A DNA stretch of 64,000 nucleotides from Takakia lepidozioides (lineage: Eukaryota; Plantae; Bryophyta), in NCBI GenBank assembly GCA_030704615.1, contig CM060734.1:57846001-57910000 (forward strand), read 5' to 3'. The notes below the pieces were generated by a model. The model was given only the letters and a program-made list of their open reading frames with translations, was not told where the DNA came from and searched no databases. Positions 21,131 to 61,270 of this stretch are shown in pieces. Each line of letters begins with the position of its first letter. Within the stretch, counting starts at the first letter, position 1. Both the position numbers and the translations under genes were made by a program.

Positions 21131-21157
21131 TTACACGTGTATGATGTACACGAGGCG

Positions 21158-25960: not shown

Positions 25961-26139
25961 TGGTGCTTGAAATCAGGACCTCTCGGATGGATCTGCACCC
26001 ACACTTCATCCCTGCCTCTTTCAGCTAACCCTGCCTAGGCAATAGTATGGCCCTGCTGCTAAGAGCTGACAATGATAACCTAAAATTTATCTAGCAAACA
26101 CCCTGACCATACTTACCACACACTAGTTCTGGTGCTGCA

Positions 26140-28955: not shown

Positions 28956-30797
28956 GTACTCATAAGACGTTGTTTGCCGTAGCCTTGTTTGTGGCCATTG
29001 ACCCCGCGCCCAGTTTGAGCGGGAACAAAAGGGACAGAACCTACCTTTGTCAGGCGCTGACGTTGGTAGTAAGACTTACCTTCATATAGAGAATTAATCC
29101 GGGTTTTCCAGATATCCACTAGAAATCCCTTCACACAAGCATCAATCTGCTGTGTGTGATTTGCCCAAAAACTAGGCCTCAGGAGGGCCTGGGCTTTTGG
29201 CTCAGCCTCGAGACTTTCAAAGTTGGTAAACAGGGGTACAGGCACAATTCCCTTGATAGATTTGAAGAGAGCGTCTCTTTGGTGAGAGAATCCCGGACAG
29301 TGTATCAGAAAATGAATACTGTCTTCAGATTGCCCACACAACGGGCAATTGCACTCTCCCTTTCCTCTCTGCTTCTGTTTGCTGTTCAAAGGTAGGCTTC
29401 CTGCCCCGAGTTTAAATTTCAGTCTAGTGCCGAGAGTGGGTAGACCCTTGAGGTCATCCAAGATGTCCTCCCCCATGTCACTGACTGGAAACAAGTTCAG
29501 GGAAGTTTTCTGCCTAACTTCATTTTCATCAGACAATCTCATGGCAACAGACATGGCTTTGGACACTACAGCCTCTAAGTCAGATTTATCCAGCAGGGTC
29601 AAGACTTGCGGCTCCAGGTCCAGGTCCTCGAGAATCTCTTCTACTCTCTTCTGCCAGGACTTAGCCTGTTTGACAGGGCGGTCCTGTTTCCAAGATATAG
29701 AGTTGATTAACTTAGGATATCTGGTGTTGGGCATATGTTGCAGCTGACCCCACCATCTGACCTTGTTTTGGAGCATGCTGACATACACTCCTTAAGCACC
29801 CCCACTTGAATGGATTCTAGAGACTTAGCCTGGTTGGAGTTATCAACCCATATTGCAGATCCGTACTCCAAGGCAGGTCTAATAACGCGACAAAGCATGG
29901 TTTTCTTAACCTCAGAGTTGACCCCTCTGCAGTGGAAAAATTTAGTGAGCCCCAGAGCTTTGCCCTTGCCAGTTTGAACACCTTTCCGGATATGTGCATC
30001 CCAATTACAATTGGAGGAAAACTCAACGCCCAGGTAAGTGTAGGAAGGGAGGACCGGGATCTCTTGGCTACCCCACTGCCACTTAAGATCACTTCCTCCC
30101 TCTCCTCTGTCGTTGAATGCTACCACTGCACATTTGCTGACATTAGCCTCTAACCCCCAAAGATCAAAGTATCTCTTCGCGCAATCAATCAACTCCTGGA
30201 GATTGGTTGGAGTCTCCCCTATGCCTGCGAAGTCATCCGCAAACATAAGGGCTGGTATGGTGATATCACCCACCCTTAACCCAAATCCCTCACTTTCCAC
30301 ATCCTCGAGGAGTTGATTGATGAAAACATTGAAGAGCAGAGGGGAGAGAGTACATCCTTGAGCTACACCTTGGTCTATGTCAAAGAAGTTGGACTTCTGT
30401 CCGTTAACAGTGACACAGCTTTTGGTGTGAGCATACAAGTTGTGGACAACTCTCCACATCTTTCCCTTGATCCCACAAGACCACAGGCGGAACCATAGGC
30501 CATCTCTCCACACTGTGTCATAAGCCTTTTTGACATCCAGGAAAAAAACATAAGTGGGTTTCCCTTCTTTTTTCCTTCCCTGGATAATCTGGCTTAGAGT
30601 GAAGATATGATCCACACAGCCCCTGTTTCGCCGAAAGCCAGCTTGGCCTTCGTGGAAACAACCTCTAGACTCCAGATCAACCTCGAGACGAGTACTTGTA
30701 ACTCTGCAGAATGTCTTGCCAACAGCATTGAGGAGCGTGATGCCACGGTAGTTCCCCGGTTCTTCTCTGTCACCCTTCTTGTATATATTGACAATGA
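28956..30797 (-). mobile_element. 5'-truncated non-LTR retrotransposon: RT plus C-terminal CCHC knuckle, RTEX-like
   Basis: YKKGDREEPGNYRGITLL, FLDVKKAYDTVWRDGLW, QGVAQGCTLSPLLF, LMFADD, YTYLG and CPLCGQSEDSIHFLIHC. Frame breaks near 30620 and 29790. Confidence 0.9.
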
Positions 30798-31339
30798 CCC
30801 CCTGTCGCCAGCGAAAAGGGGATCATTTCAGTCTTCCAGATATCAGAGAGAGAGAGAGAGAGGGATAGGAACAGCCAAAAAGAAGGAAAGAGAAAAGATT
30901 ATGACTGGTTGCGGGAAGGTTTGCCAAGAGCACGTCGAATCTTTTGACCCCCGCTCACCAAATCATTTACCTGCCTCCACCACAATGAGATACACTAGTC
31001 AGAAAGAAGACAACAATGTTGAGAATTTATGGCCTCCAGCAGTGACATTCTAGTAGGATGCATGTCAAGGACATCAGCACTACAACTCTAGCCCTGTTCC
31101 TGGTACCCTGCAAGTTGAACAGCAGTCACAACGTTGGACAAATAGGAAAGGATAGAACAGGAGAAAGAGAGAAGAGTGTTTATGAACTTGTTCTCATCCC
31201 ACAGCCTTGTGGCCACAATCCCTGCACCCTGTTTGGACTGAGCAGAAAAAAGTGGGGTGAGGGGAACAGCAGAGGGGGCTTTCCAGTAGTGAGAGTTTTC
31301 AAAATAACTTCACCCCTTCCTCTTTTGGAGGACGTAACC

Positions 31340-35576: not shown

Positions 35577-36209
35577 TTATAATTCTAATTTTCTTTGAGC
35601 CCTTCGCATTACTGTCTCGTTATGCTTTGGCTTTTTTACAAGAGTGCATTCGATTGCGATATATTTTTGAATTTTTGTAGCACATGTTTGATCTTTGATC
35701 AGTGGTTCTTGTTTTTCCTGGAATTTGTATTTTCCCCTTCGTTTAGCATTTGTTTCGTCTAGATCTATTTCCGTGGTTTGTGCTGGGTTTTCGGATCTGT
35801 ATTTTTCCCGTCGTTTAGTATTTGTTTCGTTTGGATCGGGAGGCGGATGGGATTCTATTCCCGTGGTTTGTGGTGGATGTTCACATCTGTATTTGTCCCT
35901 TCGTTTAGCATTTGTTTCATCCGGATCGGGAGGCGGATGGGATTCTATTCCTTTGGTTTGTGGTGGATGTTCACATCTGTATTTGTCCCTTCGTTTAGCA
36001 TTTGTTTCGTCCGGATCGGGAGGCGGATGGGATTCTATTCCTGTGGTTTGTGGTGCATGTTCACATCTGTATTTTTCTCTTCGCTTAGCATTTGTTTCTT
36101 TTGGATGGGGAGTCGGTTGTTTGTATCTTTTCCGTCGTTCATCATTTAGTTTCTCTTTATTTAAAGCATACTTTCTCCGTCTCTTATCATTAGCAGTTTC
36201 TTTTGCCAT
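35577..36209 (-). CDS. Basic 210-aa ORF with 30-aa (90-bp) tandem repeats; possibly the N-terminal fragment of a Helitron-like protein
   Basis: DETNAKRRDKYRCEHPPQTxGIESHPPPDP about 3 times plus partial copies. No Rep or helicase domain seen. Confidence 0.4.
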   Translation of the reverse strand: MAKETANDKRRRKYALNKEKLNDERRKRYKQPTPHPKETNAKRREKYRCEHAPQTTGIESHPPPDPDETNAKRRDKYRCEHPPQTKGIESHPPPDPDETNAKRRDKYRCEHPPQTTGIESHPPPDPNETNTKRREKYRSENPAQTTEIDLDETNAKRRGKYKFQEKQEPLIKDQTCATKIQKYIAIECTLVKKPKHNETVMRRAQRKLEL

Positions 36210-36399
36210 GTTAAGTTGAAGTTATAGACATCTAGAGATATGTTTACAAATAAATAATTGTATTCGCATAGGACATTGGTCTTTTGATAAAATAGATAAT
36301 TGTTGTATATCTAGATGTTTTTTTCATTAAAATAATTATCTTTTATGGAAATTTGTCTTAAATTGATAGAAATCATTTGTCTGGAAAGATGAAAAAGAA

Positions 36400-38848
36400 A
36401 TAGATAAAGAAAATAAAGGTTTCAAACCCGTCCTACTCTCCCTCTTCGGAGAGAGTTTGAGTCCTTAGATAAAAGATGTTTCAAAACCATCATTCTCCCC
36501 CATTGGATGGGTTCGAATCCCCTGGCGATGCTGAAAAATATGGTTGGTGCAAGGTTGATTGTTATATTTTTTGAGCCTGTGAGGATAAAAATTCAGGGGG
36601 AGAAGAGAGCTTAAGTCTCCAGGAGAAAAGAGGAAAAATGAAAAGAAAAAGATAAGAAAATTTTCAAACCCGTCCCGCTCTCTCTCTTCGGAGAGAGTTC
36701 GAGCCCGGCCCCCAGATAAAAATTGTTTCAAAACCGCCATTCTCCCCGACCGGACTGGGTTCGAATCCCTTAGTGATGCTGCAAGATATGGGAGGGAGGA
36801 AAACTAAAGAGGAAAAGATAATAAAGGTTTCAAACCCGTCCACCTCTCCCTCTTCGGAGAGAGTTCGCGTGCCCAGATAAAAATTGTTTCAAATCCGCCA
36901 TTCTCCCCCACCGAACTGGGCTCGAATCCCCTAGTGATGCTGCAAGATATGAGAGAGATGGAAACTAAAAAGGAAAAGATAATAAATTTTTCAAACCCGT
37001 CCCGCTCTCCTTCTTCGGAGAGAGTTCGAGCCCCCAGATAAAAATTGTTTCAAAACCGCCATTCTCCCCCACCAGACTGGGCTCGAATCCCCTAGTAATG
37101 CTGCAAGATTTGGGAGAGATGGAAAATAAAGAGGAAAAGATAATAAAGGTTTCAAACCCGTCCCCCTCTCCCTCTTCGGAGAGAGTTCGAGTGCCCAGAT
37201 AAAAATTGTTTCAAATCCGCCATTCTCCCCCACCGGACTGGGCTCGAATCCCCTAGTGATGCTGCAAGATATGGTCGGTGCAAGGTGGATTGTTCTACAT
37301 TCTCCCCCACCGGACTGGGCTCGAATCCCCTAGTGATGCTGCAAGGTATGGTCGGTGCAAGGTGGATTGTTCTATTAATCTAACAAGCCTTGGAAGGACC
37401 TTGAGCCTGCGTTGGTATATCGGTGGGCAAAGATTGGATACTTGCTGCATCTCAGAGGACCGCATTTTGACTTTTTCTAAAGATGACTTCGGATCGGACC
37501 CGACCAGACAAACAATACTTCTACTTATAGAAGGGAGTTTGGGTTTCCGGGAGGAGAGAGGAAAACTAAAAAAGAAAAGATAATAAATTTTTCAAACCCG
37601 TCCCGCTCTCCCTCTTCGGAGAGAGTTCGAGCCCCCAGATAAAAATTGTTTCAAAACCGCCATTCTCCCCCACCGGACTGGGCTCGAATCCCCTAGTGAT
37701 GCTGCAAGATATGGGAGGAGTAAAAATAAAGAGGAAAAGATAATAAAGGTTTCAAACCCGTCCGTCTCTTTCTCTTCAGAGAGAGTTCGAGTGCCCAGAT
37801 AAAAATTGTTTCAAATCCGCCATTCTCCCTCACCGGACTGGGCTCGAATCCCCTACTGATGCTGCAAGATATGGTCGGTGCAAGGTGGATTGATCTACAT
37901 TCTTCCCCACTGGACTGGGCTCGAATCCCCTAGTGTTGCTGCAAGGCATGGTCGGTGCAAGGTGGATTGTTCTATTAATCTAACAAGCCTTGGAAGGACC
38001 TTGAGCCTGCGTTGGTATATCCCGAAGTCCTCTTTAGAAAAAGTCAAAATGCGGTCCTCTGAGATCAGCAAGTATCCAATCTTTGCCCATCGGACCCGAC
38101 CAAACAAATAATACTTCTACTTATAGAAGGGTGTTTGGGTTTCCGGGAGGAGAGAGGAAAACTAAAAAAGAAAAGATAATAAATTTTTCAAACCCGTCCC
38201 GCTCTCCCTCTTCAGAGAGAGTTCGAGCCCCCAGATAAAAATTGTTTCAAAACCGCCGTTCTCCCCCACCGGACTGGGCTCGAATCCCCTAGTGATGCTG
38301 CAAGATATGGGAGGAGTAAAAATAAAGAGGAAAAGATAATAAAGGTTTCAAACCCGTCCGCCTCTTTCTCTTCATAGAGAGTTCGAGTGCCCAAATAAAA
38401 ATTGTTTCAAATCCGCCATTCTCCCCCACCGGACTGGGCTCGAATCCCCTACTGATGCTGCAAGATATGGTCGGTGCAAGGTGGATTGTTCTACATTCTT
38501 CCCCACCGGACTGGGCTCGAATCCCCTAGTGATGCTGCAAGGTATGGTCGGTGCAAGGTGGATTATTAACCTAACAAGCCTTGGAAGGACCTTGAGCTTG
38601 CGTTGGTATATCGGTGGGCAAAGATTGGATACTTTTTGCACCTCAGAGGACCGCACTTTGGCTTTTTCTAAAGAGGACTTCGGATCGGACCCGACCAGAC
38701 AAACACTACTTCTACTTATAGAAGGGAGTTTGGGTTTCCGGGAGGAGAGAGGAAAACTAAAAAAGAAAAGATAATAAATTTTTCAAACCCGTCCCGCTCT
38801 CCCTCTTCGGAGAGAGTTCGAGCCCCCATATAAAAATTGTTTCAAAAA
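36400..38848. repeat. Higher-order tandem repeat: about 160-165-bp monomers grouped in about 600-bp units, rich in Pol III B-box-like motifs
   Basis: ttcaaacccgtcc recurs near 36421, 36663, 36829, 36990, 37151, 37591, 37751, 38187, 38347 and 38782. taacaagccttggaaggacc occurs at 37381, 37981 and 38572. Confidence 0.95.
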
Positions 38849-38849
38849 G

Positions 38850-40490
38850 CTCTTCATTATTCTGCCAGTTGTTTGTTTTAGGTTGAAGTCTTTTAACTTG
38901 TGTGGCGTATATGAAAATAGCTTAGCCAGGTGATCTCTGATTTTGTATACAAGTTCATCAGGTTAGTTGTTGATGGCAAGGGAACAATCTAGCTTGCGAT
39001 AAGCCTGTCCTTTAAGGGCATCGTGCCATACATTCCAGGTTTGACCATACGGGGCTCCTTTGAGGTTCGTCACAATCACCGTGGGAGGAAGACCTGCAGC
39101 TATTCTCTCTTCCTTCACCTTGGCAGCTTCAATTTTGGCTGAGCTATTAGCTCTCCTTAAAGCATTGATTCTATCATTCTTTGAAACGGCACCTTCCCCT
39201 CCTTCAGAGACCTCCGTGCGCACAGGAGAATTCACAGCAGGATCCTGCCAAGTAGGGACTGGTGGCCATGGCTGTTGGCCAGAAGGCCGAGGACCATACT
39301 GGCCATACTGTCCATAAGCAGGAGGATATTCCGGTGGCCTGCCACCCCCATAGCTATTAGGGGGTGGCAAATATGGTGGAGGAGGATACTGGCCATACTG
39401 CCCATATGGAGGAGCACCATATTGACCTTGACCATACTGAGTGCCAGACTGTGGGTACTGAGGCATACCATAATAAGGTGGGGGTATTGGTGGCACAAAA
39501 CCCAAAACGATGGGAGAGTTAGGGCCACCTCCTGCATTCTTGTGGGCGCCATCTCCATTGCTAGCAGCAGGGATCGTGGATCCAGTGCGCTTGTGCTTGC
39601 CCTGAAAAGAAATTCCCCCAGTACAATGTGGGTGATTATACATACATATAGGCAGCAAGCAGCAAATCCTTGAATTCAAGATAGCAAACTGGAAGCACAT
39701 ATGATTTGTAAATATAAGATTACCCAAAACTCAGTATGATCTTGGGCAGTAAATCTCCCAAATTTGATTGGCCCCAATGATGCCCTCCCATTACATTTTT
39801 GAACCCTCTTAGGTATGGGGTGTTCCTGAAATCCATAGCAAGAATTCAAAGGGACAAACCTGATGGGTCCATGAGAAGCCCTCCAAGTTTTACTGATATT
39901 CTGGGTGCATAAGTAACCCAAGTATCTCTATAAGTAGCCATTGTAGCTTAGTACCAGGACGTTGGTTTCATGGGGCAAAGAATTTGAACACACCTGAAGT
40001 CTACATTGGGCTGACATCATGCCTTTGGCACTTCAACTTGTCTAGTGGAAATCATTTGTGATTGTGCCTTGGCTGACCCCTGCATTGTCCAACTTCCCTG
40101 TCTTGACAGACATACCCTATCTCGTCATGATCTTACCATACCCTATCTCTTCGTGATTTTACCAAAAACTTACATAATTTGAATCATGGTCATTGTGAAG
40201 AACTATAACTCACAGACGGAGAAGGTGTTCGTAGTGTAGATGATGGGCGTTTTTGTCTTGCGACATGAGTCTGGGCATGTTCTCTTCGGCTCGCCGTGGC
40301 ATCCGCCGACGACGCACTCGCCTCGCACTGGCGTGGGAGGAGTGGATCGTCCTCATCGTCCTCAGAAGAGCCCTCATGCAGAATCGTAGTCTTCATCGTC
40401 TTCAGTCTGGCACTTTGCCTTGCAGGACCTTGATCCCTAGCTTTTTCCTTCGGAGTGCGTGGCTTGCGAGGGCGTTTCGCTCCCGCAAGC
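38850..40490 (-). pseudogene. Probable CACTA accessory gene (Pro/Gly/Tyr-rich), divergent from the transposase and truncated by the repeat array
   Basis: ORFs 40190..40582 and 38963..39727 (PYGQYGQYPPPP, WNVWHDALKGQAYRKLD). Assignment rests on position next to the Tnp2 gene. Confidence 0.5.
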
Positions 40491-41032: not shown

Positions 41033-44000
41033 ATAGCATGCAAAGAGGGAAGGGGTGACGTTCAAAGCATGTACAGTGCAGGTGGCGACCGGATGCGTAG
41101 GCGTAGAATAGATGACCGTCTATGGCGAATGGAAGAAGCTTATGCCACAAGGAATGGGCATACAAAAATGCTATGCAACTGCGATGAGTGTCATGGAGGA
41201 AACTACTGTTGTTGGAAACAGTGAGGAATCATTATATGATACACGGAAGGGATCCTCTTCTCCGACGCTGTTCTTCCGGTACGATCGCCACTTTCCCTTC
41301 AACACTTTAGTTTGAATTTTGAATGCAACGATCCTCTTCTCCACATGTCGACATTTTGTTGGGTGATTGTAGTCAAGAAGTCATAAGATACAGACGTGAC
41401 TATGACTACGTCACTTCCGTTATCACTTTAATTAATGCACATGTCGTGTTTTCATTGGTCATGTGTAGTCATGTAGTCATATATGACTAAGTAAGTGACT
41501 GCAACTATGACTTCAATGGTTACAAATGTCGTGTTTTGATTAGGTGTATATTCATAAGATACATACGTAAATATGACTGCATCACTGCAACGTCACCGTG
41601 CCTCCCATGTCATAATATGAACAAGTGTCACATCGTTGTTGGTCCATTCACAAGATGACTATTGGGGTGCAGGGATGTGAATATTCAGATGATGAAGACG
41701 AAGGCCCTGCGGCACAGCGGGAGCCCAATGTCACAGAGAACGCAGATGAGGGTGGTGGATTGGAGGTAGAAATCCAGCGTGCATTGTAGGAAGCGTTTCT
41801 ATTTGCAGATGCAAACAGAGAGGACCCCATTCATGGTGGAACCGATCACACATTTGCTGATCATGACGATGACCTCGACGATTCTGGAGACAATGAATTT
41901 GATGAGAATGCTCACCTGCACGTTGATCCCGAGTATCATAAACTCTTCCGGCAGTCGCAATGTCCACTTTTTGAAGGGTGCTCGATCAGCCGGCTGCAAG
42001 CAACTTTGACATTGTTGAACGCATGCACTACCCACAAGTGCACCAATGCATTTGTGGATGAGCTTCTGGGATTGTTGCATAAGAGTTTTTCGCCTAAAAA
42101 GAATTCATTGCCGAAAACTCACTATGAAGCAAAAACCATGATTGCCAAGATGGGATTGCAATACACGATGATTCATGCCTGTGAGCGTGGTTGTGTACTC
42201 TTCCGTGGGGAGTATGAGAATATAGACATTTGCCCAGTGTGCCGCAGTTCCCGTTACATTCCAGGTCGTGGAAGTGTGCCCAAGAAAGTATTGCGACACT
42301 TCCCTGTCATTCAAGGTTGAAACGTATGTACCGATGTAAATCGATCGCTAACATCATGACATGGCACGACAGACATAAGAGCCAGGATGGGTTGGTTCGA
42401 CATCCAGCTGATAGCAAAGCATGGAGACACATTGACACCACATTTGCGGATTTTGCTGCAGAGCCACGATCTCTGCGATTTGGATTGGCCTTAGACGGTG
42501 TAGATCCCTACGGAGCTCAATCCACCAGTTGGAGCACATGGCCCGTTCTCTTGGTCAATTACAATCTGCCTCCGTGGTTAATGACCAAAAAGTTCTTTGT
42601 CATGTTAGCGCTACTGATTCCTGGTAAGGAGTCTGTTACCTCGGACAACGTAGATGTTTACCTGATGCCCCTAGTGGAAGAGCTATTGGAACTATGGAGA
42701 GGGATTGCAGCTCATGATGTTTCCCGTCCTCGTGGTCAACGCGAATTCACACTGAGGGCAGTGTTGATGTGGTCAATCCATGACTACCCTGCATATGGCT
42801 TGCTCTCAGGTCAAGTGACGAAAGGTTATGCTAGTTGTCCAGCTTGTGGACCCGGGGTGACTTCACAGCAGTTACACACATGTGGGAAAACTATTTTCCT
42901 AGGCCACCGAAGATTTCTGGCCCGCAATCATCCATATAGAAGGTCAAGAATGTTCAATGGCGCTACTGAGCATGGAACTCCTCCAAAAACGCAGACTGAA
43001 ACACAAATCAAGGAGCTTGCAACAACTCGCACTGCATGGGTGGAAAACGGAGGGACGCCAGATAGCAGGACAGACCCAGCAAAAACTCATGGAGTTAAAC
43101 GATTGTCAATTTTATATGTCTTACCTTATTGGGAGGTAATTCCTTCATGGCCTGTAAATTGGCTGTGTACATTTTTGTGTTTTCTGTTTAAATTGTGATG
43201 AGTAAATGCTCAATTGCTTATGTCTTCATTTTGTAGGGTCTCCTCATCCGCCACTCGTTTGACGCAATGCACTGCGAGAAGAACTTGGCTGAAAATATTA
43301 TTAAAACCATTTTTGGTGAGAAAGACACATTGAAAGTTCGCCATGATTTGGAGCTACTTGGGATGCGCCCGGAATTGTGGCTACAACGTGATCCTGACAG
43401 AGCAGATACGTTAATTATGCCTCCTGCCCCTTATGTCCTCACTGAGGCTGAGTTACAAGTCTTTCTGGAGATTGTGCAGAACTTGAAAGTGCCAACAGGC
43501 TACGCATCAGCTTTCAAAAAGCATGTGGTGAAGAGAAATTGTCTGGCATGAAATCACATGACTATCATGTGCTCATGCAGCAAATTATACCGCTTGCTAT
43601 CCGTGGGCTCATGGCAAGTGGTCCTCGCAGGGCCATTTTATGAGTATGTCGTGTATTTAAGAAGTTGTGTGCAAAAGTAGTGAATCCTGTAGAGTATGAG
43701 GAATTGAGAACTGAAGCAGTTCTCACTCTGTGTCTTATAGAGAAGGAGTTCCCACCATCATTTTTTGATGTGATGACACATCTGGTTGTTCACCTAGTGG
43801 ATGAGTTGTAATTATGCGGGCCCGTAGCATCTCGTTGGATGTACCCCATGGAGCGGGCAATGAAAGATATAAAGGGCTACGTAAGAAACATGGCAAGGCC
43901 CGAGGGGAGCATGGCAGAAGGATACCAATTTGAAGAAGCATTGGGTTTTTGCACAGAGTATATGGCAGGATTTGATGGAAGTGTACGAAGGGTGTGGGAT

Positions 44001-45216
44001 GCAGATGAGGCAGAATCTGTGGAATGTGAAGTTGTGGAAGGAAGTTCTAAAGCCCGAAAATTGAATGACCTGCGTGATATTGTACATGAGTACATCATTC
44101 AGAACCATCCTCGTCTATCAGTCATGTTGGGGTAAGAAATCTACTTCATTGACATTCAAATTTCCAAGTTTTAGTCATTTCTCATTAGTTGGCATATGGT
44201 GTCTTTTCATATCTCCCACGCCACCTCTGTCAATCTCCTGGCTGACCCTCGGATTGTGACAGGATATATAAAGCAGAGTCCACATGGATAGAAGCCAGAC
44301 GACGCTTGTTTCGTGAGGAGCAAGGGCTGGAAGACATGAGCAATCCCACGACAATTCAGTACCTTCCTGATTTGCATCCATGTCCTCCATTTGCTGTTTG
44401 GCTCCCTCAAGGTGTACGGGATCATCTCTCAATTCAATCAGATGGGCCTGATCCTACAACACGTGAGGAATTACTGGATCTTTCAAGGCCTCCATCATTT
44501 ACTGCCCTGTCATTCAAGAGTATGACAGCGTATGGTAACCATTACAGGGTTACATCCCCCGACATGAACACAACAAGTATGGTGTCTTTTGATTGTGGAG
44601 TCTCATCTGTTTTCCAGCACCAGCCCATTACCAACAATTCAGGCAATGACATGGAGGAACCTACAAGATATGTGGGTCTTATAAGGGAGATTTTGCAAAT
44701 TGACTATGGCCAAACACAGCCTATAGTGTTTTTGTGTTCGTAGGTACGAGCGTGTCGCGTGGGTCGTCAACCTATGTCAATGAAGCAGGATGATGTTGGC
44801 TTCACACTTGTCAATTTTAACCGTATGCTTCCACCTTCTGAGCAACCTTTTGTGTTTCCTGGCCAGGTTGATCAAGTGTTTTTTTCTGATTGTGTGAAGG
44901 AGCCGAGGTGGAAAGTCGTCCTGGAGAAGAGCCCCCGAGCACGTAGAGTGGTCTGCGACATATCAATTGATAATGATGATGTGGCGGAAGTGGAAGGATG
45001 TTAGCCCCACAAAGACTAGAGGAGACTGTGGTTATTGATGGCCCAACATGCAGCCGAGCGGTACCGGTTACTCCAGAGCAGGTGGCCTCCTTGTACCTCC
45101 GAGCACCCCGTATACGTGGTGATGATGTTCAGCCAACCCTTGGAAAAGATCAAGTCTGTGATGAAGACAATGATACATGCAGTGACCCAGACATAGATGA
45201 GGATGATGAAGATTAG
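41033..45216 (+). pseudogene. CACTA/En-Spm Tnp2 transposase (Transposase_21, DUF4218- and DUF4216-like regions), multi-exon, disrupted
   Basis: IHACERGCVLF...CPVC, HPADSKAW, FGLALDGVDP, WSTWPV, NLPPW, DYPAYGLLSG, DAMHCEKN, MKSHDYH, WMYPMER, RPEGSMAEGY, QPFVFPGQVDQVFF. Termini not found. Confidence 0.92.
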
Positions 45217-45991
45217 ATATGCTAGATTTGTGCACTCCAGTTATAGACCATGCATGATAGTTTAAGGTGGTAACACTCCCTTCGCATTCCCATTAAGATA
45301 TCATGCTTGGATAGTGGATTTTATGATCAATTATGGAGTGCTTTCCTTTCAGCACCCTTTATTCATTTGTTGTTGCAATTGGCTTTGGACCAACCCGTGC
45401 TGGTACCATTGCCATGGGTTCTGCCTGCAATGTTTTCTTGCTGTGGATTCGGCACATGCCACGAAAAGCCATCCAGAGCATCCTCTGGAAATGCTCCAAT
45501 GTTGTTTCAAACATCTCCACATTGCAATGGATACAACACTGACATTAGATGAGTGAAAGTGAGACTAGACCTCCAGCCAGCCGGCTTTCCCACATCAAAT
45601 TGAAGGGGATCTGTAGATGATAGATACTGGCTGTTGCCTTCTCAATGTCTTTTCCAATCACCTCTGCAATGAACTGGGGTACATGCTGTCGATGGTGAGG
45701 CTGGGGTGATGACCAGCCAGACCATCATTGTTTCTCCTGTGATGAGGTTGGAGGTGATGACCAGCCAACCATAGGAGTGCTTGCGGTGGATGCAAGTACA
45801 GGTGTAGGCTATGTTAGGAATTTAGTATTCCAAACCATAAGCCGCAACAGGTTCTCTACCCGGTTACCTTGTGGAGAGGGGGTTAGGAACATGTTCATGA
45901 CCGGTTGAGTGTCAACACGGAGGTGCCACTAATTGCTGGGGACAGTGCCGGTTCGAGCACTAGCGATACTAGTGGGTACACGAGATGAGGT

Positions 45992-47343
45992 GTGCGGTTT
46001 AGGCCACCTTCACCTCCTGTGTCTTCTACGGAAGGTTCTGATTCGGATTGTGAATCAGGAGGACTCATACTGGCGGTGCAAGTTGTTTCTTTGCCATTGT
46101 TGTGGGACACAATGGAGGAGATGTATGGAGCTACCAAGGGGCCACGAAGGTACTCTGGGGCGGTGGGCACCATCGAGTTGGATGATTTTATCCAAGAGTT
46201 TGATAGTTGGTGTGATTTGCAGCAAATGCGCAATCCACAACTATTACGCCTTTCATGGCATGGAAGGGGCTGTTTCAGCACCTTGAGGGGCCGCCTATGG
46301 ATGATTACCATGAGTTCAGGCGGGGGCATGAGGTTGAGATCGAGGAGTGGAGGATGTACTGGTCACCCAACTATGTCTCCATCACTAGGGGCGCTAGAGC
46401 CACGAGGGCAGTGGCTACACCTGCCGCTGCACCGGCAGCTTCAGCAAGTAGTGGTGGGACTGGTGGTACAGTAGCTACGACGTCCACCCAAGCCACTACC
46501 GCACCAGCACTAGCACCCGTGCCTGCCTTCAACCCTGTTGTGGAGTTCTTCGAAGAGTTGAGAGGGAACTACCAAGGGGTGAGGACAAAGAAGTTGCGGA
46601 GCTTGCAAGAGTTCCAACGGAAGCCGACTGAGAGCTTGAGGGAGGCTTTCACTCGCATGAGGCGCTTGATAAATGTAACCCAAGGGGTTACGGAAGCTCA
46701 GGCAGTCCAATTCTGGTATAGGATATTGGACAAGGAGCTGAGGAGAAGGGTGCGGGATGCAACTCTCCTACAAGCGGCCCAACCCACCTTAGCAAATGTG
46801 TTTTTGCTGGCAGAGCGGATAGAGCTCAACATGGTGGAGGAACGAGTGGTCATGGTGGGATTTGCTAAGGAGACACCACGGGGTAGTGGTGCTCCTAGCC
46901 AACCACTACCTCAACGTGCTCAAGGCAACAAGGGGGCTCAGGTGAAGCTTAGGGAAGGGCAGAGATGACCTCAGATGCAGGGGTCTCTCCCTTCATTTGC
47001 TGGCCAACAACGGGCGGATGTGGTGTGTTGGACATGTGGAGGACCCCATGTCAAGAAGGATTGCCCAGAGGGAGGCAAAGGGCCGGCACATGCACAGCCT
47101 GCACAGTTGCAGTGTAGGCATTGTGGCAAGCATGGGCATGGAGAGGCCCAGTGTTATGGTTTGCATCCTGAGTTGCGCCCAGGCCAGTTCCAAGGGAACA
47201 ATGGTGGCGGGGGCGAGGTGGAGCAGCCCAGAGAGGACGAGGTGGCCAACCACGAGGTGCAAGCCAAGGGCAAGCTCAACATGGCCAAGGATGCGGAGGT
47301 CAGGGTGTTGACCAAGGCATGGCCAACCGGCTTTAGCAGCTAG
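45992..47343 (+). pseudogene. gag with two zinc knuckles
   Basis: ELDDFIQEFDSWC, FQRKPTESLREAFTRMRRL, CWTCGGPHVKKDC and CRHCGKHGHGEAQC; frameshifted. Confidence 0.85.
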
Positions 47344-47360
47344 AGCAGAGGCTCGCTGCC

Positions 47361-48600
47361 ATGGCTACAGCTCAGGTGGTACCGGCTCTAAGGCCGGATG
47401 GTCCACCTCCTGCTCCTGAGGGAGGAGATATGGGAGGCATGGGATTCATGTGTGGAGCAGCACTACCACTAGTGCGGGTGGAGTCTGCTGCAGCCGTGAC
47501 TCGAGGAGCAGCACGAGTTCCTGAGCCACGAGGTGCAGAGGTGGAGTTGGATCCACAGTGTGGGGAGGCAAGCCGTCAGGCTAGGCTTCCTCAGTCAATC
47601 ACATTGGCGGAGACAGTGTCGACGCCATCCATGGCACCTAGTTCTCGCCCGACTGTTACCGAGGCGGAGGTTACTATGCCATTGGGGAGAGCTACACGGG
47701 TAGCACCACTACCTAGTGTTGCCAAGGCTACGGCAGCTAGTGTGCTACTAGGAGCGGCCACATCTGTGTGCCAGGCTCCATTGTTCTCGGCTACCATGAT
47801 TGCGACGTCGGGGGTAAGACCAGCTGAGGTGTTCAGGCTGGCAGCTACACTCTGTGAGAGTGGGGAGGTTATTTCATCTTCTGCGGAGATAGTGGGAGGT
47901 GTAGTGCCGGAGGGATCCTTGGATTTGAGGGTCAAGACTGCCACGGCGGCGCCATGGCAAGCTTCAGCTGCCAGGTTGATGGAGCTGCCAGCTAGGCCAG
48001 CCATTGAGCGCGCCATGGTGACACCTGGAGTTGTCATGTTAGACAACCAGGATGACATTTTCTGTTTGAGTGGACCGGCAGGCAAGAGGTACCGGCCACT
48101 GCGGGTCTTGTTGGACTCGGGAGCTCAGCCACTGATGCTGGGCAGAGCTGCTATTGCAGGCTTGGGCCTCACGGAGGCGGATATGGAGCCTTGTCCTTTC
48201 CAGATACAGACGTCTCTGGGAGGATCGGAGCAAGCTCGGGGCATGACACGGCGTGAGTTGGCTATCAGACTACGGCCGGATCACCCTACAGATGGCTCAG
48301 TGATGCGAGCCAAGGCCATTGTGACAGACGCGGTCTCATACGATGTCCTGGTTGGTGGGGCAGTATTGTACCCCATGGGCTTCACCCTAGATTTTTGGGA
48401 GGAGTCAGCTTCCTATAGGCCTGCATGGCAGTCAGGGGAGGGCCGGCGTGTGCAGCTCCCTGTGACGTTCATAGGAGGAGTTGCGGTTGCCCAGCGAGGC
48501 AAGATGCCGACACTAGCAGCATTCACATCGGCAGTGAGTTGGCCTAGAGAGTTGCTTGAGGGCAATGCTCATTCAGAGGATGTACCACCTCCGGAGAGCA
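47361..48600 (+). pseudogene. pol N-terminal region with retroviral-type aspartic protease
   Basis: VLLDSGAQ near 48105 and YDVLVGG. Confidence 0.85.
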
Positions 48601-48826
48601 GGATGACATGTATGGTATGGCGGAGTTGCCTACCATGGTTGCTCAGACTCCATTGTGGGGCACGAGCAAGGATTTGCAGCGGGATGCTGATCGACGGGTG
48701 CAACAAGCCTGGGTGGAGGCTTTTGTACCGTCAAGAGAGGAGGAGAGTGCGGGGATTGCACCAGGACCACCTCAATTGTCTCCATTGGACACCACACCTA
48801 TTGTGTGGCAGTATCCGGATGAAGGC

Positions 48827-49790
48827 ATTTGTCTTCTGGACTTGTTTGGCGGGATCAGCACCGGATTGGCTGCTGTGTTACAGGCAGGTGTACGAGTTCG
48901 GCGTTACCTGTATGTGGAGAGGGATGAGACTGCACGACGCGTTTCACTTCGCCATGTTGCTCAGTTGGTGCAGCGGTACCCTGAGTTGTTGTCGGTGTCT
49001 GCAATTCGTGGATATCAGCAGGCCTTGCCAGCAGACATTTCGTTGCTGGGGGCGCAGGATTTGGAGCGGGTTGGCTCCATTGATCTGGTAGTGGCAGGTT
49101 GGCCCTGCCAAGGGCATTCATCAACCGGGCATGGCAATGGATTGCGAGACTCGAGGTCGGGTCTGTTTTGGGAGATGGTGCGGGTTTTGCGCCACTTGCA
49201 GCTTCATCAAGCTGTATCTCCACATACATCTTGGAGAATGTGCCACTGATGGGCGATTCTCGGGCCAGGGTGATGGCCAGTGTGCATCAAGTCCGGTCGT
49301 GGCTTGGGTCAGCAGTGTTGCTAGATGCAGCTACAGTGGGGTCACGGGCTCATCGTCCACGGCTATGGTGGACTAACTTGATGCCACCCGCACTGCTCAA
49401 GCGTGCATTTGATGGGGTGCAGCGGCCAGCATATCTCACAGTGGATAACATTCTGGACACAGGGAGGCAGTCTCAGCGTGTGAGACACGATGACCGTTCG
49501 CCTTTGGCAGTGGTCAACAAGGTGGGTCAACCACGAGCAGCATTACCTACACTGCTCAGCTTCCCAGGATCGCATGCTTTCCGGGATAGTGGACCTGGCC
49601 TCCTGTGGGATGCTCAGTTGCAGCAGTTAGTGGAGCCTAATGCTGACGAGAGTGAGCGGGCAATGGGTTTTACCACTGGTACCACGACGGTGTCGTCTCT
49701 TTCTGAGGCATCACGTCGTCAAGTGTTGGGGCAAGCAATGGATCTCAATTGCTTGACCTGGATTATCAGCTTGGCTCTGGCTGAGCAACG
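48827..49790 (+). pseudogene. DNMT3-like C5 cytosine methyltransferase domain inside pol
   Basis: Motif I LLDLFGGISTGL, II YVERD, III ADI, IV DLVVAGWPCQGHS (PCQ 49103-49111), VI ILENV (ENV 49234-49242), VIII AHRPRLWWTN, IX ESERAMGF, X RRQVLGQA. One frameshift near 49222. Confidence 0.92.
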
Positions 49791-50231
49791 CAGAGTGCGG
49801 AGTACACTTCCCTCAATGGTCTCTCTGCCTACCGAGACGGTACAGGCAGTGAGTGGGGGCGAGCATGTGAGGACCACGGGGTGCATGCATCCATGGCACA
49901 CGTGGGAGGTGCTCGAGGTTCAGAGGGAGTTGGCAGCCAAGGCGGCTGTGATGGATGAGGTTGGGGATTCTTCTCGGGTGAGGAGGTCCTCAAGGATGAG
50001 ATGATGGGGCAGGATGAGGCCTTGTCATTGACTGAGCAGGCAGGGAGTACTGCTCAAGAGGTTGCAACATAGCAACCACTGAACGCGTCCTCTACCTCTA
50101 AGCCCACTGGACTTAAGGTTGCAGTTACGGAGGACAATTGGGAGCCTGACATTGGACCCATTGTCACCGGAGGAGAGAGACGACGTATACGGCGGTTCCT
50201 GAGGGCTTACAAGAATTGCTTTGCCTTCAGT

Positions 50232-51570
50232 TTGAAGGACTTGGGAGCACTGAAGGGTCAAGAGATCCGTATTGAGTTGGCCACTGACACGCCAATCTTT
50301 CGGAGACCCTATAGATACAGTGACATGGAGAGGTCTTTGATTCAGATGAGGACTCAAGATCTCTGGGAGGCAGGTTTGGTGGAGCTCTCTGGTGGAGAGT
50401 ATGCTTCAGCCACAGTGATGCCAGCCAAGAAGGATGTCTATGGCAATTGGACGGAGAGACGTATGTGCGGTGATTACCGGCCTGTAAATCGTCAGACCAA
50501 GTCCGATAAGTATGCCATGCCAACACCAGAGGAGATCTTTGATGCCATCGGGCATGCTAAGGCCTTTAGCACTTTGGATTTACGATCCGGATATCACCAG
50601 TTGCCAATCAAGGAGGCGGACAAGCAGAAGACGGCATTCTGGGGATCAATGAGCACGGCAAGGATTGCCTATATCAGTGGCGGTTCTTACCATTTGGGCT
50701 TAAGAATGCTCCTGCAGAGTTTCAGAGAGTCATGGATAGGATTCTAGCAGGGGTGGACTTTGCTCGGTGCTACATAGATGACATCATCATCTTTAGTGTT
50801 ACGATGGAGGAGCATGAGAGACACCTTCAGGTGGTATTGGAGCGCTTGAGAGCGCACGGATTGAAGTTGCATCCGGGGAAGTGCAAGTTTTTCCACAACC
50901 AGATTGAGTATCTGGGTCACATGATATATCCTGGAGGATTGGGGGTACAGCAGACTAAGGTAGAGGCCATTGCACAAATTCCACGCCCCACGGATGTGAG
51001 CCGAGTTCGAGCTTTCATGGGGTTGACAAACTATTATAGACGGTTTGTCAAGGGATTTAGTACCATTGCAAAGGCTCTAACCAAGCTGACCAAGGTGGAC
51101 CAGGAGTGGCAGTGGGAAGATGAGCAGGAACGAGCTTTTCAAGAGCTCAAGGCGAGGTTGACCTCGGCGCCTATCCTGAGACGACCTATCAGGGGGCGTC
51201 CCTTTCAGCTGCATACGGATTGGAGCATGCTGGGGCTTGGAGCGGTGCTCACACAGGTGGATGATGAGGGAAGAGAGTTCGTAGTGGCTTATGTTAGCCG
51301 CTCGAACAACGCTGCAAAGGCTAAGTACAGCTCATATGAGGGAGAGTGCTTAGCTGCAGTGTGGGCCGTGGCACACTTCAGGTGCTATCTATACGGCAAT
51401 CTTTTCACCCTTGTCACGGATCACCAGCCACTCAAGTGGTTGATGGAGTCAGACAAGCTTACGGGGAAGCTTGCACGGTGGGCACTCATACTCCAGGAGT
51501 ATGACTTTCAGGTTGTGCATCGACCAGGTTTGGTCAATCGGGATGCGGATGGATTGAGTCGCAATCCATG
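50232..51570 (+). pseudogene. Reverse transcriptase and RNase H
   Basis: RMCGDYRPVN, LDLRSGYHQ, LPFGLKNAP, YIDD, YLGH; RNase H LHTDWS, YEGECLA, TDHQPL, NRDADGLSR. Confidence 0.95.
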
Positions 51571-51939
51571 CATGAGCCAACAGGATGACACTGGAGCTCG
51601 GTGGCATGGTGAGACGGACGAGGAGATGGTGCCGGGATGGCACGCATCTGCATTTTTGTGTATCTTGGCATCGGAAGGTCAAGTTGGACCTACAACAGGG
51701 ATGACTATAGACGGAGTGTCTGAGGACCCTGAGGCTAGTGATGAGCCAGGTGGTGCCAGAGATATACATGAGGATTCGGCTGTGTTGGACTACCTCCACA
51801 CGGGAGACACGGCAGCCACTGTGACTGCCAGGGAGAGGGATCGGATCCTGCAACGAGCCAAGAGGTTCAAGTGGGAGGGGATACACCTACTTCGAGTGTG
51901 GGAGGATGGTCGGGTGAGGATTGTGCCTCACCCCACACA

Positions 51940-53192
51940 GCGTGCACGGTTAGTGCGGCATGCCCATGAGGAGTTGGGGCATTTTGGAGTGCGACGCACT
52001 CACAGTTTACTGCAGGGGCAGTATTGTGGCGTGGTATGCATACAGAGGTGCAACAGTTTGTGGCTAGGTGCATGGTGTGTGACAGGGTGCGTGCTTCATT
52101 CAACGCCCCTACACCACAGTTGCATCCTTTACCAATCATGGGATTGGGCTACAGGTGGAGTCTTGACTTTGCAGGACCGTTGCCACTGACTATGCGCCAC
52201 CACAGATATGTGTTGGTGATGGTGGAGCATTTCTCCAAGTGGATTGAGTTGGTTCCATTGCCTGACAAGGCTAGTGAGGGGGCTGCGTATGCATTCTTGG
52301 ATCGTGTGCTTAGCCGATTTGGTGCTCCAGCTGAGGTACTCACGGACCAAGGGAGAGAGTTCTTGGGGGAGTTTCAGGCTTTGTGTGATAAAGCCTTGAT
52401 AGACCACCGCACCACTTCTCGGGATCATCCTGAGGCCGATGGCTTAGCAGAGAGAGTTGTTCAGACGGTGAAGAGGGGTTTGCGCAAGTATGGCTTGCAG
52501 AAGGGACACCTAGGAGATTGGGATCTTCAGGTTCCTTGGTTAGCCATGGGCTACAGGTTCAGCAAACAAGCATCACTTGCCTCCTTCTCACCATATTTCC
52601 TTCTCTTTGGCCGAGAGCCGGATTTGCCTGCAGCCATTCGTAGGGACACTGCTCAAGTCCTTAACCTTGACGATCCGGACGTGTGGGTATGTGCATGTGA
52701 TCAGCGTGCAGAGTTGTTCAAGAAAGTCATGCCCATGGCTTTTGAGAACCTTGCCATTGCACAGCACCGTGATACGTTGAGGTATGCCACTATACGTGGT
52801 GGAGGATATCGTCCTGGGGTTCGGAGGTTTATGTTTATTTGCAGCAGACTGCTCCTACGACTCTGGATGTTACTGCATGGCGTGTTATTTTGAGGGTTCG
52901 AGAGGTGTTGCCCTCAGGGGTCCTGATCTTAGAGGGTCGGGATGGCATGACTTGGAAGGACCATGTGCGTAATTGTGCGCCATGTCACCTTCCCAATGTC
53001 GATGGCAGAGTTGACCCAAACTTGGCAGTGGTACCTGCAGGTTTGAGGTGCATGCTCTGTGGGTCTGCCAAAAGGGCAGCCACCATGCTGGTGTGTGATC
53101 GATGCTCAAGGGGTTGGCATATGGGATGCTTGACACCACCTCTTGAGAAGGTTCCTGACGGAGATTGGTTGTGTCCACACTGCTTTGGATAG
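51940..53192 (+). pseudogene. Integrase (HHCC + DDE) with C-terminal PHD finger
   Basis: HEELGHFG...CMVC, SLDFAGP, TDQGREF, DGLAER. C4HC3 finger CMLC...LVCDRC...WHMGCLTPPLEKVPDGDWLCPHC at about 53049-53183. Confidence 0.93.
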
Positions 53193-53440
53193 TGACAGTG
53201 GACATGACTGGAGGCAGCTAACAAGACATGGGAGGCCAAACTCATAGGAGTCAATACATGAGATCCCAAGCTCAAGTTCACAGGTTGCAAGACGGCGACT
53301 AACGATGGGGCAACTCTTGCACCCGGCCTCTTGATCTATCGAGTTTGAGTGTAGTAGGGATAGTGGTGGAGGACTTAGTGAGGCTATGGTCACTATCACA
53401 TCTTGTGGCTACCTGGACTTAGAGGGACCTAAGCACCAGC

Positions 53441-53450
53441 TAGGGGGGCG
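53441..53450 (+). other. Polypurine tract
   Basis: taggggggcg ends 2 nt before the TG-starting repeat. Confidence 0.7.
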
Positions 53451-53452
53451 AT

Positions 53453-54125
53453 TGTGTGGACTAGCGACTGCCATAGTGGGCAGCATAGTGGCAGCCTAGT
53501 GACTGACTAGTTGTAGCCTAGTGGTTGGACTAGTGGTTGGACTAGTGGTGGACTAGTGGTATACTAGTGTGTGGTGTGCACATGTGTTGTGTGGTTTTGG
53601 ACAGCGATGTAGTTGTGTAGCGATATGTATGCGCACGACAGCTGTCAAGTTATTTTACCACTAGTGTGAAACTAACTAGGAAATAGCTAGCTTTTACATA
53701 TTGACATTTGGGATTGGCCCAAGTGTCAATCCAGGGGTCAAGGCAGATTTAGGCCCTGAAGTGGTTATCTTCATGGCAAGCGTGGAAGGCTCATCTTTCT
53801 CGAGTTGAGCCTCACCGCGCCTAGCTATGGCGCCGTAGTGTGGATTCCCCATGGCGTGGGGTGCACTTGGCTTGACTTGTATTTGAGTGATGAGGTTATA
53901 TATGCATGAGTTTATGCTTCAGATTTGTGAGCTCATGCTTGTATTCTTCTTCGTTATCATTGTGTGGACTAGTGACTGCCATAGTGGGCAGCATAGTGGC
54001 AGCCTAGTGACTGACTAGTTGTAGCCTAGTGGTTGGACTAGTGGTATACTAGTGTGTGGTGTGCACATGTGTTGTGTGGTTTTGGACAGCGATGTAGTTG
54101 TGTAGCGATATGTATGCGCACGACA
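53453..54125 (+). repeat. 3' LTR region: two direct TG...CA copies (53453-53640 and 53961-54125) around a 320-bp spacer with a TATA-like box
   Basis: tgtgtggactag(c/t)gactgccatagtggg...gcgcacgaca occurs twice; the copies differ mainly in the number of ACTAGTGG units. ttatatat near 53896. Confidence 0.85.
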
Positions 54126-54399
54126 ACTACTCTTCTCTGCATATGAGCTTCACCGTCGGCTGCACTCGAGTGACGACTCTTCTCAAATCTCAGTCGTGCA
54201 CGGTCTTCTCCTCAAACCCACTCCTCAACTTTATCTGCTTCCCTACAGATTGAGTGCTTAATGTTGCATTTTTGTCAACAATGATGCAGATCCAGGGGCA
54301 GTGAATACTGACATTTTGCGGGAAGTACCTGTTTGGCTTGCGAAGCTGAGCAATGTGCTTCTCATGAGGTGTGACACCCAACATTATTACATTCATTTC

Positions 54400-54870
54400 T
54401 GTTCTCAATGCTTGTCCAGCCTAGGAGCCCTGGAAAAAGGTACAGAGAGGTCCATGCTGACATCATTCTGGAGACTGCTCTATGTATGCCAAGTATGGGA
54501 GCTTGAACAATGCCAGACAAGTTTTTGACAAAACATCTCAACGAAATGTGGTCTCATGGAGTGCGATGATGGAGGCTTTTGAGATGTATGAGCAGATGAT
54601 ACGGGAAGGCATAACGTCCAGCAAGGTCACGTTCATTTCCACATGTGCCATGATAACAGCCCTGGAAGAGGGCAATGAGGTCCATGCTGACATCATCAAA
54701 GATGGAGTTGCCTCATATATCTCTTTAGAAAATGCACTTTTTAACATGTATGCCAAATGCGGCAGCTTAAAGGATGCACGGGAAGTGTTTGACAACATGG
54801 CTGCGCAAGATGTGGTCTCAGGAGCGCGACGTTGATCGCATGATATGCTCAGCATGGGTTTGGTGTGGAG
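54400..54870 (+). pseudogene. PLS-class PPR gene fragment
   Basis: MYAKYGSLNNARQVFDKTSQRNVVSWSAM and NALFNMYAKCGSLKDAREVFDNM, with deletions. Confidence 0.85.
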
Positions 54871-56009
54871 GCCAATCTTTTATTCAAGAGCCAGGGATAG
54901 GGGGAGGAGTGAAGAAAAATATATATCAGCAAGATGTATTAAGCCCCAAGTCTGAAGTCCACTTCACAGGGCACCACAACAAAGATCCTGGGTAACTTTC
55001 AAACCCCCACATGCTGCCACATCACCAGCTGTTACTCTCCCACCAAGGTCGTCAATTGCTTGCATGTACTCTCTTGTACATATGGAAGGAGGGCCCTTGT
55101 GAAGGCCTTGACCTAATTGCATACCTATCAATTCACTACATCAGAGCCTGGCCAATGACAGAGACACTCTACTTGAAAAACTGCTATAATCTTGCTTGCT
55201 GCATGATTGAACCCTCATACTTCACAAAGCACTTTGCGACCTGTAACTGAAGAGCTATGCTGCTGATTGGATAGATGTTGCGAGTAGGGGCCCGACCAGT
55301 GATCTACACAAGGAAGGGAAATGCTGGTGGAAGGCATCGTTGCAAGGCAGAGCTGCCGGGAGACTAAATGCTAATCTTGAACCACAGGTGACTGCATAAT
55401 GACCTTGTCTGCAGCAAATTAGCATTGGAAACCCATGCCTGTTGACAAGGTCCAAGCCAAAGATGGTAGTGATGATGATAATCGGGGCAACCAAGGTGGC
55501 TATGGGAACCAGCGATATGTAAACTCGGGGTTTAGTTTCTATACTAGTCCTTTTGATTTGCTATGGTATTTATCTATGCCAACTTCACTAGACCCTCTGT
55601 TCAAAATGATGTAAATACAAGCAAATGTTCAATAGACACCATATGACCATGCACGTGAGGTGTGCATATCAAGCAAGTGAAACTTTTTAGCTACTGTGAT
55701 TAGTTCCCCAAAGGATTATCAGCAGTTGATGCCAGATCACTTGTCCATACTTTGGGAACCTTGGGGCTTTAGATGTTGTCACTATCATCAATACTAATGT
55801 GCAGCTTTCTCTTTGATTCTCTCTATTTTGTCCTAGTATATGGTCACAATGGAAAACAATGAAATATGGGATGTATGTATGTAACACTATGGGGATGACC
55901 CACCCCCTTTTGTGAAAAATTGAACGTAGTAGTTCTCAAAATCCGTCCCTAGTAGTGCGAAGCAACGCCAAGCCCTAGTACTTAAGAATCCAAGTGGGTT
56001 CATGCTGTG

Positions 56010-58697: not shown

Positions 58698-61270
<2,573 letters not shown>

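Follow-up and report, generated by a model that had tools for sequence, protein, structure and literature searches.

What does a PHD finger do at the end of a retrotransposon integrase when the same element encodes a DNA methyltransferase? In chromoviruses, a chromodomain sits after the C-terminal domain of the integrase. In the window, the whole 64,000-nucleotide stretch of the Takakia lepidozioides genome analyzed here, a PHD finger is encoded at this place, downstream of a DNMT3-like methyltransferase (DNMT). The initial annotation saw in this arrangement a histone reader combined with a methylation writer, an ADD+DNMT3-like pairing that might direct the element to H3K4-unmethylated chromatin. 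We examined the element, its relatives and the residues of the finger with this proposal in mind.

The finger belongs to a decayed and 5'-truncated Ty3/Gypsy element of the Gypsy-DNMT3 kind, which occupies 45,682-54,125 on the + strand as judged by its domain order, a pile-up of contigs and its 3' end. The domains, all on the same strand, run in the order Gag-protease-DNMT3-like-RT-RNaseH-integrase-PHD. Gag (46,061-47,150, limits approximate) is in pieces, with a Retrotrans_gag match below the cut-off (E=9e-4) and zinc knuckles read from the translation. The aspartic protease (48,090-48,410) was recognized with our own profile common to the relatives, which match Asp_protease_2; the window copy itself gave no Pfam protease match. 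The DNMT3-like C5 cytosine methyltransferase (48,803-49,770; PF00145, E=9.8e-10) has its frame broken near 49,220 and is followed by the reverse transcriptase (RT), broken near 50,640, with RNase H (50,202-51,505; RVT_1, E=1.9e-24; RT_RNaseH, E=3.4e-35). The zinc-binding domain and catalytic core of the integrase (51,930-52,830; Integrase_H2C2; rve, E=3.5e-14) are broken near 52,025 and 52,830, and the C-terminal beta domain and linker (52,833-53,048; strands at model residues 21-44) lead into the C4HC3 PHD finger at 53,049-53,183. RT, RNase H and DDE integrase thus stand in the Gypsy order, and Ty3 Gag-Pol is the best PDB match of one relative (P0033). No Pfam chromo match was obtained for a chromodomain at the integrase C-terminus of the window element.

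The window copy is dead, as it consists of nine pieces in changing frames, and the break near 52,830 places the C-terminal domain and the PHD finger out of frame with the integrase core. The earlier statement that the integrase ends in a PHD finger therefore describes the family, in which 14 of 45 relatives carry integrase core and PHD in one chain, but not this copy. Contigs from four runs (at most three samples) pile up over about 45.7-54.1 kb with loose ends at 45,682, and their depth over 45.9-54.0 kb is far above that of the left flank, a depth that gives no copy number. Relative to the window, these contigs show small indels that coincide with the frame breaks or lie close to them. No RNA run was listed as carrying the element, a result without bearing on its expression. 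Given the pile-up and the position of these indels, the breaks look private to the window copy of a multi-copy family.

To the left, the element borders on a CACTA-type element (Transposase_21, DUF4218; 41,790-44,740); PPR pieces and an EF1-alpha-family gene lie 0.3-6 kb to its right. One insertion in such mixed surroundings cannot show targeting, and the fit to a transposon nest, which had been offered as support for it, is weak. Elsewhere, the window contains a sodium:sulfate symporter-like ORF (265-1,425, - strand) and a second reverse transcriptase; the EF1-alpha-family gene contains introns. Besides the element, ORF or gene regions, including those of the PPR pieces and the CACTA-type transposase, lie at 24,370-26,900, 29,710-30,822 (-), 41,790-44,740, 54,300-54,900 and 58,700-60,340 (-). 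Related short tandem repeats form large arrays, oriented both ways, which together with a 160/600-base satellite fill 8,900-9,430, 11,500-22,700 and 35,670-38,980. CpG depletion was considered as a sign of self-methylation and gives no indication of it, with values of 0.36-0.60 in the window element and of 0.48 in related loci vs 0.23 in their flanks (n=17).

A canonical paired LTR was sought in the window element and not found. The 3' end (53,451-54,125, +) consists of split direct repeats, B1 (53,451-53,640), A2 (53,643-53,958) and B2 (53,959-54,125), with 87% identity between B1 and B2 over 193 columns. A purine tract at 53,442-53,448 (+) precedes them in a region conserved in related loci, and its position suggests that it is the PPT. 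The 5' A1 copy is absent, and about 1 kb of the 5' end is missing when judged against the related locus L031. The full A1-ORF-B1-A2-B2 layout with TG...CA termini is present in L031 (1,889-11,098) and L042 (1,679-10,805); both of these loci, the two that hold both ends, show 4-bp target duplications. The DIRS-like split direct repeats characteristic of Gypsy-DNMT3 are thus complete in these two loci and partial in the window. In 18 of 69 loci, two ends are joined internally (CA, two bases, TG), which together with the split repeats suggests integration from permuted or circular cDNA. Three loci (L002, L013 and L016) carry internal deletions that keep protease, DNMT and PHD and remove RT and RNase H, with the same layout in L013 and L016.

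The finger itself is complete in the translation; after it come two residues and then the stop codon at 53,190-53,192. It matches PF00628 over model positions 1-47 of 47 with 44.7 bits (cut-off 24; E=1.3e-11). An AlphaFold2 model built from a 68-row alignment had a mean pLDDT of 77.5, with blocks of 87-93 in the finger, and placed a small beta domain before it. Foldseek matched the finger model to solved PHDs at 0.6-1.3 Å across 46-51 columns, including DPF2 (0.6 Å, 46 columns), ATXR5 (1.1 Å), UHRF1, BAZ2A/B and BHC80. With the C4HC3 ligands in place, a score above the cut-off and the PHD fold, the finger belongs to PF00628 and is canonical, as had been claimed. A chance match of a Cys-rich stretch was rejected on the basis of the full-length Pfam match and the Foldseek results. 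In sequence, the best 60 of 86 PDB matches comprise CHD4, PHF12, KDM5 PHD1, ATXR5, DPF, BHC80, BAZ, ORC1B, UHRF, AIRE and similar fingers, and none of these 60 is an ING, BPTF or ADD finger. The window gave no match to the ADD family at E<=0.01, and the model shows a lone finger without the GATA-like finger and helix. The finger is under constraint, with a median pN/pS of 0.34 against 63 of the best 80 loci; the integrase C-terminal domain has a lower median of 0.22, both values being uncorrected and drawn from loci that are dead copies. The integrase C-terminal domain closes with a Cys, encoded at 52,983-52,985, that does not vary among the 68 aligned PHD-bearing rows and whose equivalent is mostly missing from the clade of relatives that has no PHD.

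How widely the finger and the DNMT occur together was examined among relatives, in which domains were located with our own profiles. A search with the C-terminal piece found 45 proteins among 377 candidates, the nearest named ones coming from Marchantia, Calypogeia and Sphagnum. An RT-RNaseH search gave 1,233 matches among 7,989 scored, and the best 120 of the 1,233 were used; the resulting tree, built by a quick method, has 111 rows. Excluding 14 distant rows and 40 that start after the DNMT site or end before the PHD site, 57 relatives could be scored: 44 have both domains, 8 have the DNMT only and 5 have the PHD only. One of the PHD-bearing proteins (P0057) was counted by eye and has no Pfam match. 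All PHD-less rows fall into a single clade (SH-aLRT 100; Closterium and other rows) in which the chains end in basic tails and the DNMT retains its catalytic Cys and ENV motifs. The DNMT-less rows require two changes on the tree; P0124 is the sole PHD-only protein that spans protease to RT, and a DNMT further upstream is possible in the other four. Co-occurrence, proposed initially as a check on the pairing, is therefore the common state, but DNMT and PHD have each been lost singly, so that the independent distribution named in the initial annotation as a refutation is partly realized. The independent pairs available for a test of DNMT/PHD co-evolution number two, which is too few.

The DNA loci agree with the protein records. 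Among the best 80 of 533 confirmed loci, a DNMT lies upstream in 25 of 29 informative ones; in the remaining four the protease is missing too, and we did not take them for true losses. No open frame from integrase core to PHD was present in any of the 69 metagenome loci with a core within 1.1 kb. Since these loci are dead copies, it is the protein records that document the integrase-PHD fusion. The DNMT lies before RT in the window copy and in streptophyte-named rows, and between RNase H and integrase in Haematococcus, Pleodorina, Monoraphidium and many other rows; its position requires one change on the RT tree, and the DNMT tree splits alike into 15 vs 40 rows. Within the lineage, the PHD constantly follows the integrase C-terminal domain, whatever the position of the DNMT, and the one row with a chromodomain (P0073) groups apart from the lineage on the RT tree. 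These distributions, with both domains in most relatives and loci and losses of either, indicate that the pairing is old and usual, not obligate, and that the finger travels with the integrase. We gave the lineage no REXdb clade because the REXdb survey (PMC6317226) mentions neither a PHD nor a methyltransferase.

Several relatives have further modules. Six algal-type proteins (P0112, P0122, P0111, P0113, P0044 and P0159) have a Tudor-like module after the PHD (PF21743, E=3.8e-5 in P0122, below the cut-off), and algal-type tails often have an extra domain of about 200 residues after the PHD, methyltransferase-like by eye. In two more distant Gypsy proteins (P0117 and P0154), a Dam adenine methyltransferase is combined with a PHD that lies between RNase H and integrase. 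Five Marchantia gene models (P0003, P0004, P0013, P0020 and P0026), annotated as separate PHD proteins with about 220 residues, are integrase tails of the Gypsy-DNMT3 family.

The methyltransferase appears to be a DNMT3-like, unrearranged enzyme inside Pol. All 25 PDB matches of its C-half are DNMT3A/B/C, although weak (E 0.007-0.97), as are the top 19 of 37 matches of its N-half, likewise weak. It is 70-73% identical to a Marchantia relative and 42-56% to the Klebsormidium relative. Because many relatives start just before RT, we also considered a two-ORF layout in which a fixed stop separates DNMT from RT; it was rejected as a rule of the lineage, since P0039, P0052, P0057, P0063, P0065 and others read through from DNMT into RT in one chain. 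In motif IV of the relatives, Glu or Ser often precedes the catalytic Cys, vs the usual Pro. With a DNMT3-like enzyme and a PHD finger together in most relatives and informative loci, the combination of domains in one element that had been described as reader plus writer is real.

The site two residues before the His, which we take to be that of the Trp in the K4me3 cage, is occupied by Gly in the window finger. Intact fingers were counted in 36 of 46 rows of the window clade, which lies on the land-plant side of the lineage, in 28 of 28 other DNMT-before-RT rows and in 38 of 39 algal-type rows, and the cage Trp is present in 0/36, 0/28 and 0/38 of them, that is, in 0 of 102 family fingers. 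Its absence, first noticed in the window, is thus a property of the family. A Trp directly before the His, found in 36/36 fingers of the window clade, alternates with Tyr or Phe among relatives, and KDM5 and CHD4 fingers have their Tyr at the aligned position; the Met three residues before Cys3 is 88-93% conserved in family fingers. An invariant cage Trp is a feature of H3K4me3 readers of the ING/BPTF type (PMC3241642). It is very unlikely, in our estimate, that the finger is an H3K4me2/3 reader that uses the conserved Met and the Trp beside the His and steers insertion to active chromatin. The conservation of these two residues and the nearby PPR and EF1-alpha-family sequences fit such a reader; the empty cage position, the exchange of the Trp for Tyr or Phe and the lack of any such reader among the best 60 of 86 PDB matches contradict it.

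Reading of unmodified H3 had been argued from the missing Trp alone, so we looked for its positive determinants. In KDM5A PHD1, L309, P331, G333 and W335 hold Ala1 of H3, D312, which is essential, and D315 hold Arg2, and D292A or E305A causes a loss of about 6-fold (bioRxiv 10.1101/715474). The equivalents of L309, V330, P331, G333 and W335 (Ala1/Thr3 pockets) and of D312 are kept in 33-34 of 36 window-clade fingers. The Ala1 pocket is present in 33/36 fingers of the window clade, 24/28 of the other DNMT-before-RT rows and 34/38 of the algal type, and the first Arg2 acid in 34/36, 26/28 and 38/38, respectively. The second Arg2 acid is found in 0/36, 2/28 and 9/38. An acidic wall before the first strand, common to BAZ2A, UHRF1, MOZ and DPF3 (PMC5415848), is present in 0/36 (Ala-Ala in the window), 10/28 and 31/38, and an acid before Cys1, a feature of H3K4me0 readers of the BHC80/AIRE type, in 3/36, 18/28 and 26/38, with none in the window. 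These residues suggest weak, Ala1/Arg2-driven binding of H3 by the window-clade finger, with doubtful selectivity for K4 because the clade lacks the acids that define K4me0 readers of the BAZ/UHRF1 type. The resemblance to UHRF1 and BAZ readers therefore holds for overall similarity but not for the defining acidic residues, and the lack of the K4me0-reading acids in the window clade speaks against the proposed targeting of H3K4-unmethylated chromatin. Side-chain acids are not always required, since ATXR5 holds K4 by backbone carbonyls only and Arg2 by two Asp (PMC5499861). The algal-type finger looks like a better K4me0 reader.

On balance, we lean towards the view that the PHD finger at the tip of the integrase serves as a tether to H3 tails and that the DNMT works separately, on the cDNA of the element itself. 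In active relatives, the finger would likely dock the integration complex on nucleosomes via the free H3 N-terminus (Ala1-Arg2) and, by binding histones, could take part in target choice. The protease would free integrase-PHD from the DNMT, and the latter would likely methylate the element's own cDNA, which is the hypothesis of PMC5890265 for retrotransposon DNMTs. For the window clade, we predict weak binding that depends only loosely on the methylation state of K4. The tether agrees with a PHD that is fixed on the integrase while the DNMT shifts, and with the loss of either domain alone; the absence of the acidic wall and the second Arg2 Asp from the window clade, together with pre-Cys1 acids in so few of its fingers, weighs against it. 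The same residues raise the possibility that the window-clade finger is no longer a histone reader and acts within the integrase as a structural or protein-interaction module, or else binds DNA or another host factor. All three acidic determinants are missing from 33/36 window-clade fingers vs 5/38 algal-type ones, the median net charge of the finger is +1 vs -4, its pN/pS exceeds that of the neighboring domain and some PHDs bind non-histone partners (PMC3241642). We nevertheless judge this possibility to be rather unlikely, as the Ala1 pocket and the first Arg2 Asp, both facing the H3 groove, have been kept.

A prediction for one algal-type relative points in another direction, in which the PHD would cap the DNA cleft of the DNMT until unmethylated H3 displaces it, so that methylation would be written at K4-unmethylated chromatin. 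The animal ADD, composed of a GATA-like finger, a PHD and a helix, works in this manner, its loop 526-533 covering H789, R790, R792 and R831 until H3K4me0 displaces it (PMC6316889). The predicted complex of the DNMT (1110-1445) and PHD (1912-1985) of P0112 (Haematococcus) scored 0.69, compared with 0.22 for the best of three controls, with agreement between runs in at least 67% of contacts and a partner pLDDT of at least 73; the pass mark is reached by 51/78 solved vs 2/108 mismatched microbial pairs and, in eukaryotes, by 39/65 vs 2/126. Its interface joins the H3 groove of the PHD to DNMT residues H1302/L1304 and 1364-1381, and H1302 aligns with the HRAR motif of DNMT3A. The use of the H3 groove in this model suggests that the two domains may not be independent. 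Since the complex passed the mark, the chances of an ADD-like switch are raised, and the presence of both domains in 44/57 relatives and the adjacency of DNMT and integrase in the algal-type clade favor it as well. However, PDB 4U7P is a solved complex of similar kind, and the prediction may have passed by recall of it; the three controls included no unrelated PHD, and the one relative was folded without an alignment and lies outside the window clade. Across 45 paired sequences, no covariation was seen at the 25 closest contacts (1,559 of 5,000 random sets were as high, a comparison of low power), and the columns of the DNMT interface are conserved almost to the same degree where a PHD is absent (0.73 vs 0.85; other columns 0.77 vs 0.81). 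ADD-type acids are missing from the window clade, DNMT and PHD have been lost independently, and in the window copy the two are separated by 3,279 bases or about 1,090 residues. We thus regard such a switch as unlikely, and of the ADD+DNMT3-like pairing suggested at the outset there remain the joint presence of a PHD and a DNMT3-like enzyme and the predicted seat of the PHD on the DNMT cleft, but neither an ADD nor proximity. It seems similarly improbable that the animal ADD-DNMT3 switch arose anew from unconnected domains in a green-lineage family and there links the choice of target to methylation of the new copy.

The element bears on two questions, site choice by plant retrotransposons that have no chromodomain and the purpose of retrotransposon DNMTs, the latter left unsettled by PMC5890265. 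The lineage supplies natural variants in the form of fingers with or without K4me0 acids, a DNMT before RT or beside the integrase, and clades that lack either domain. In the literature searched, which took in little of the subscription literature, we found no paper on a PHD and a DNMT3 in one Gypsy element or on tests of such a finger, and Fig. 4c of PMC5890265 may show the finger; the pairing is apparently undescribed in detail. The kind of element and the PHD add-on are each already known, and only the predicted contact of finger and methyltransferase would exceed the ordinary.

The closest known element is KnitGypsy-Dnmt3 (de Mendoza et al. 2018, PMC5890265), which likewise has an unrearranged DNMT3-like domain in Gypsy Pol and DIRS-like split repeats; the name Gypsy-DNMT3 for such streptophyte elements comes from bioRxiv 10.64898/2026.05.21.726589. 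In Klebsormidium nitens, a protein (P0101) shares the protease-DNMT-RT-RNaseH-integrase order with the window element and ends before the PHD site, and its sister row (P0097) has the PHD. Compared with KnitGypsy-Dnmt3, the present lineage extends to liverworts, Sphagnum and chlorophytes and includes a second placement of the DNMT. PHD-bearing retrotransposons are described as widespread (PMC6673714), and their fusions have been surveyed (bioRxiv 10.1101/2021.11.30.470311). The initial annotation took PHD-bearing Gypsy elements to be established in some non-seed plants; in the accessible parts of the published descriptions, we found one in Chlamydomonas and none in non-seed land plants. This element, Gypsy-7a_cRei (bioRxiv 10.1101/2022.06.16.496473), likewise has the PHD as an accessory of a Gypsy polyprotein with a proposed influence on insertion, and it inserts between genes 2.6x over expectation from a cause not established there; the accessible text names no DNMT, and its legend places the PHD before the integrase. 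EpiLTRs of Cymbomonas and Euglena also unite a histone reader and a cytosine methyltransferase in one LTR element, but with a chromodomain in the role of reader; their DNMT, sister to DNMT4, is stated to have been gained separately, and a Dam domain is present as well (bioRxiv 10.64898/2026.05.21.726589). In chromoviruses, the reader is an integrase add-on as well, but again a chromodomain.

Among PHD fingers, KDM5 PHD1, ATXR5, BAZ2A/B, UHRF1 and DPF PHD2 are the nearest in sequence or fold and have the Ala1 pocket and first Arg2 Asp in common with the element; unlike these readers of unmodified H3, the window clade lacks the acidic wall and the second Arg2 Asp and largely lacks the pre-Cys1 acids. 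A host DNMT3 guided by an ADD, the model invoked initially, is not the arrangement of the host, since plant DNMT3 is described as a methyltransferase with DUF3444 (PMC6453930) and ADD_DNMT3 is said to have been added in bilaterians and cnidarians (bioRxiv 10.1101/2021.11.30.470311). The animal DNMT3A ADD module resembles the element in joining DNMT3-type catalysis to a cage-less PHD-type reader, and the contact predicted in P0112 would cover the same cleft (PMC6316889). In the animal enzyme, however, the ADD adjoins the catalytic domain and D529/D531 bind K4 (PMC6316889), whereas the window finger is single, of the C4HC3 type, and lies about 1,090 residues from the DNMT, and these acids are absent from its clade. 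If the predicted contact is false, a familiar type of accessory domain sits on a familiar type of element; if it is true, it would represent a convergent, ADD-like control in plants whose own DNMT3 is described without an ADD.
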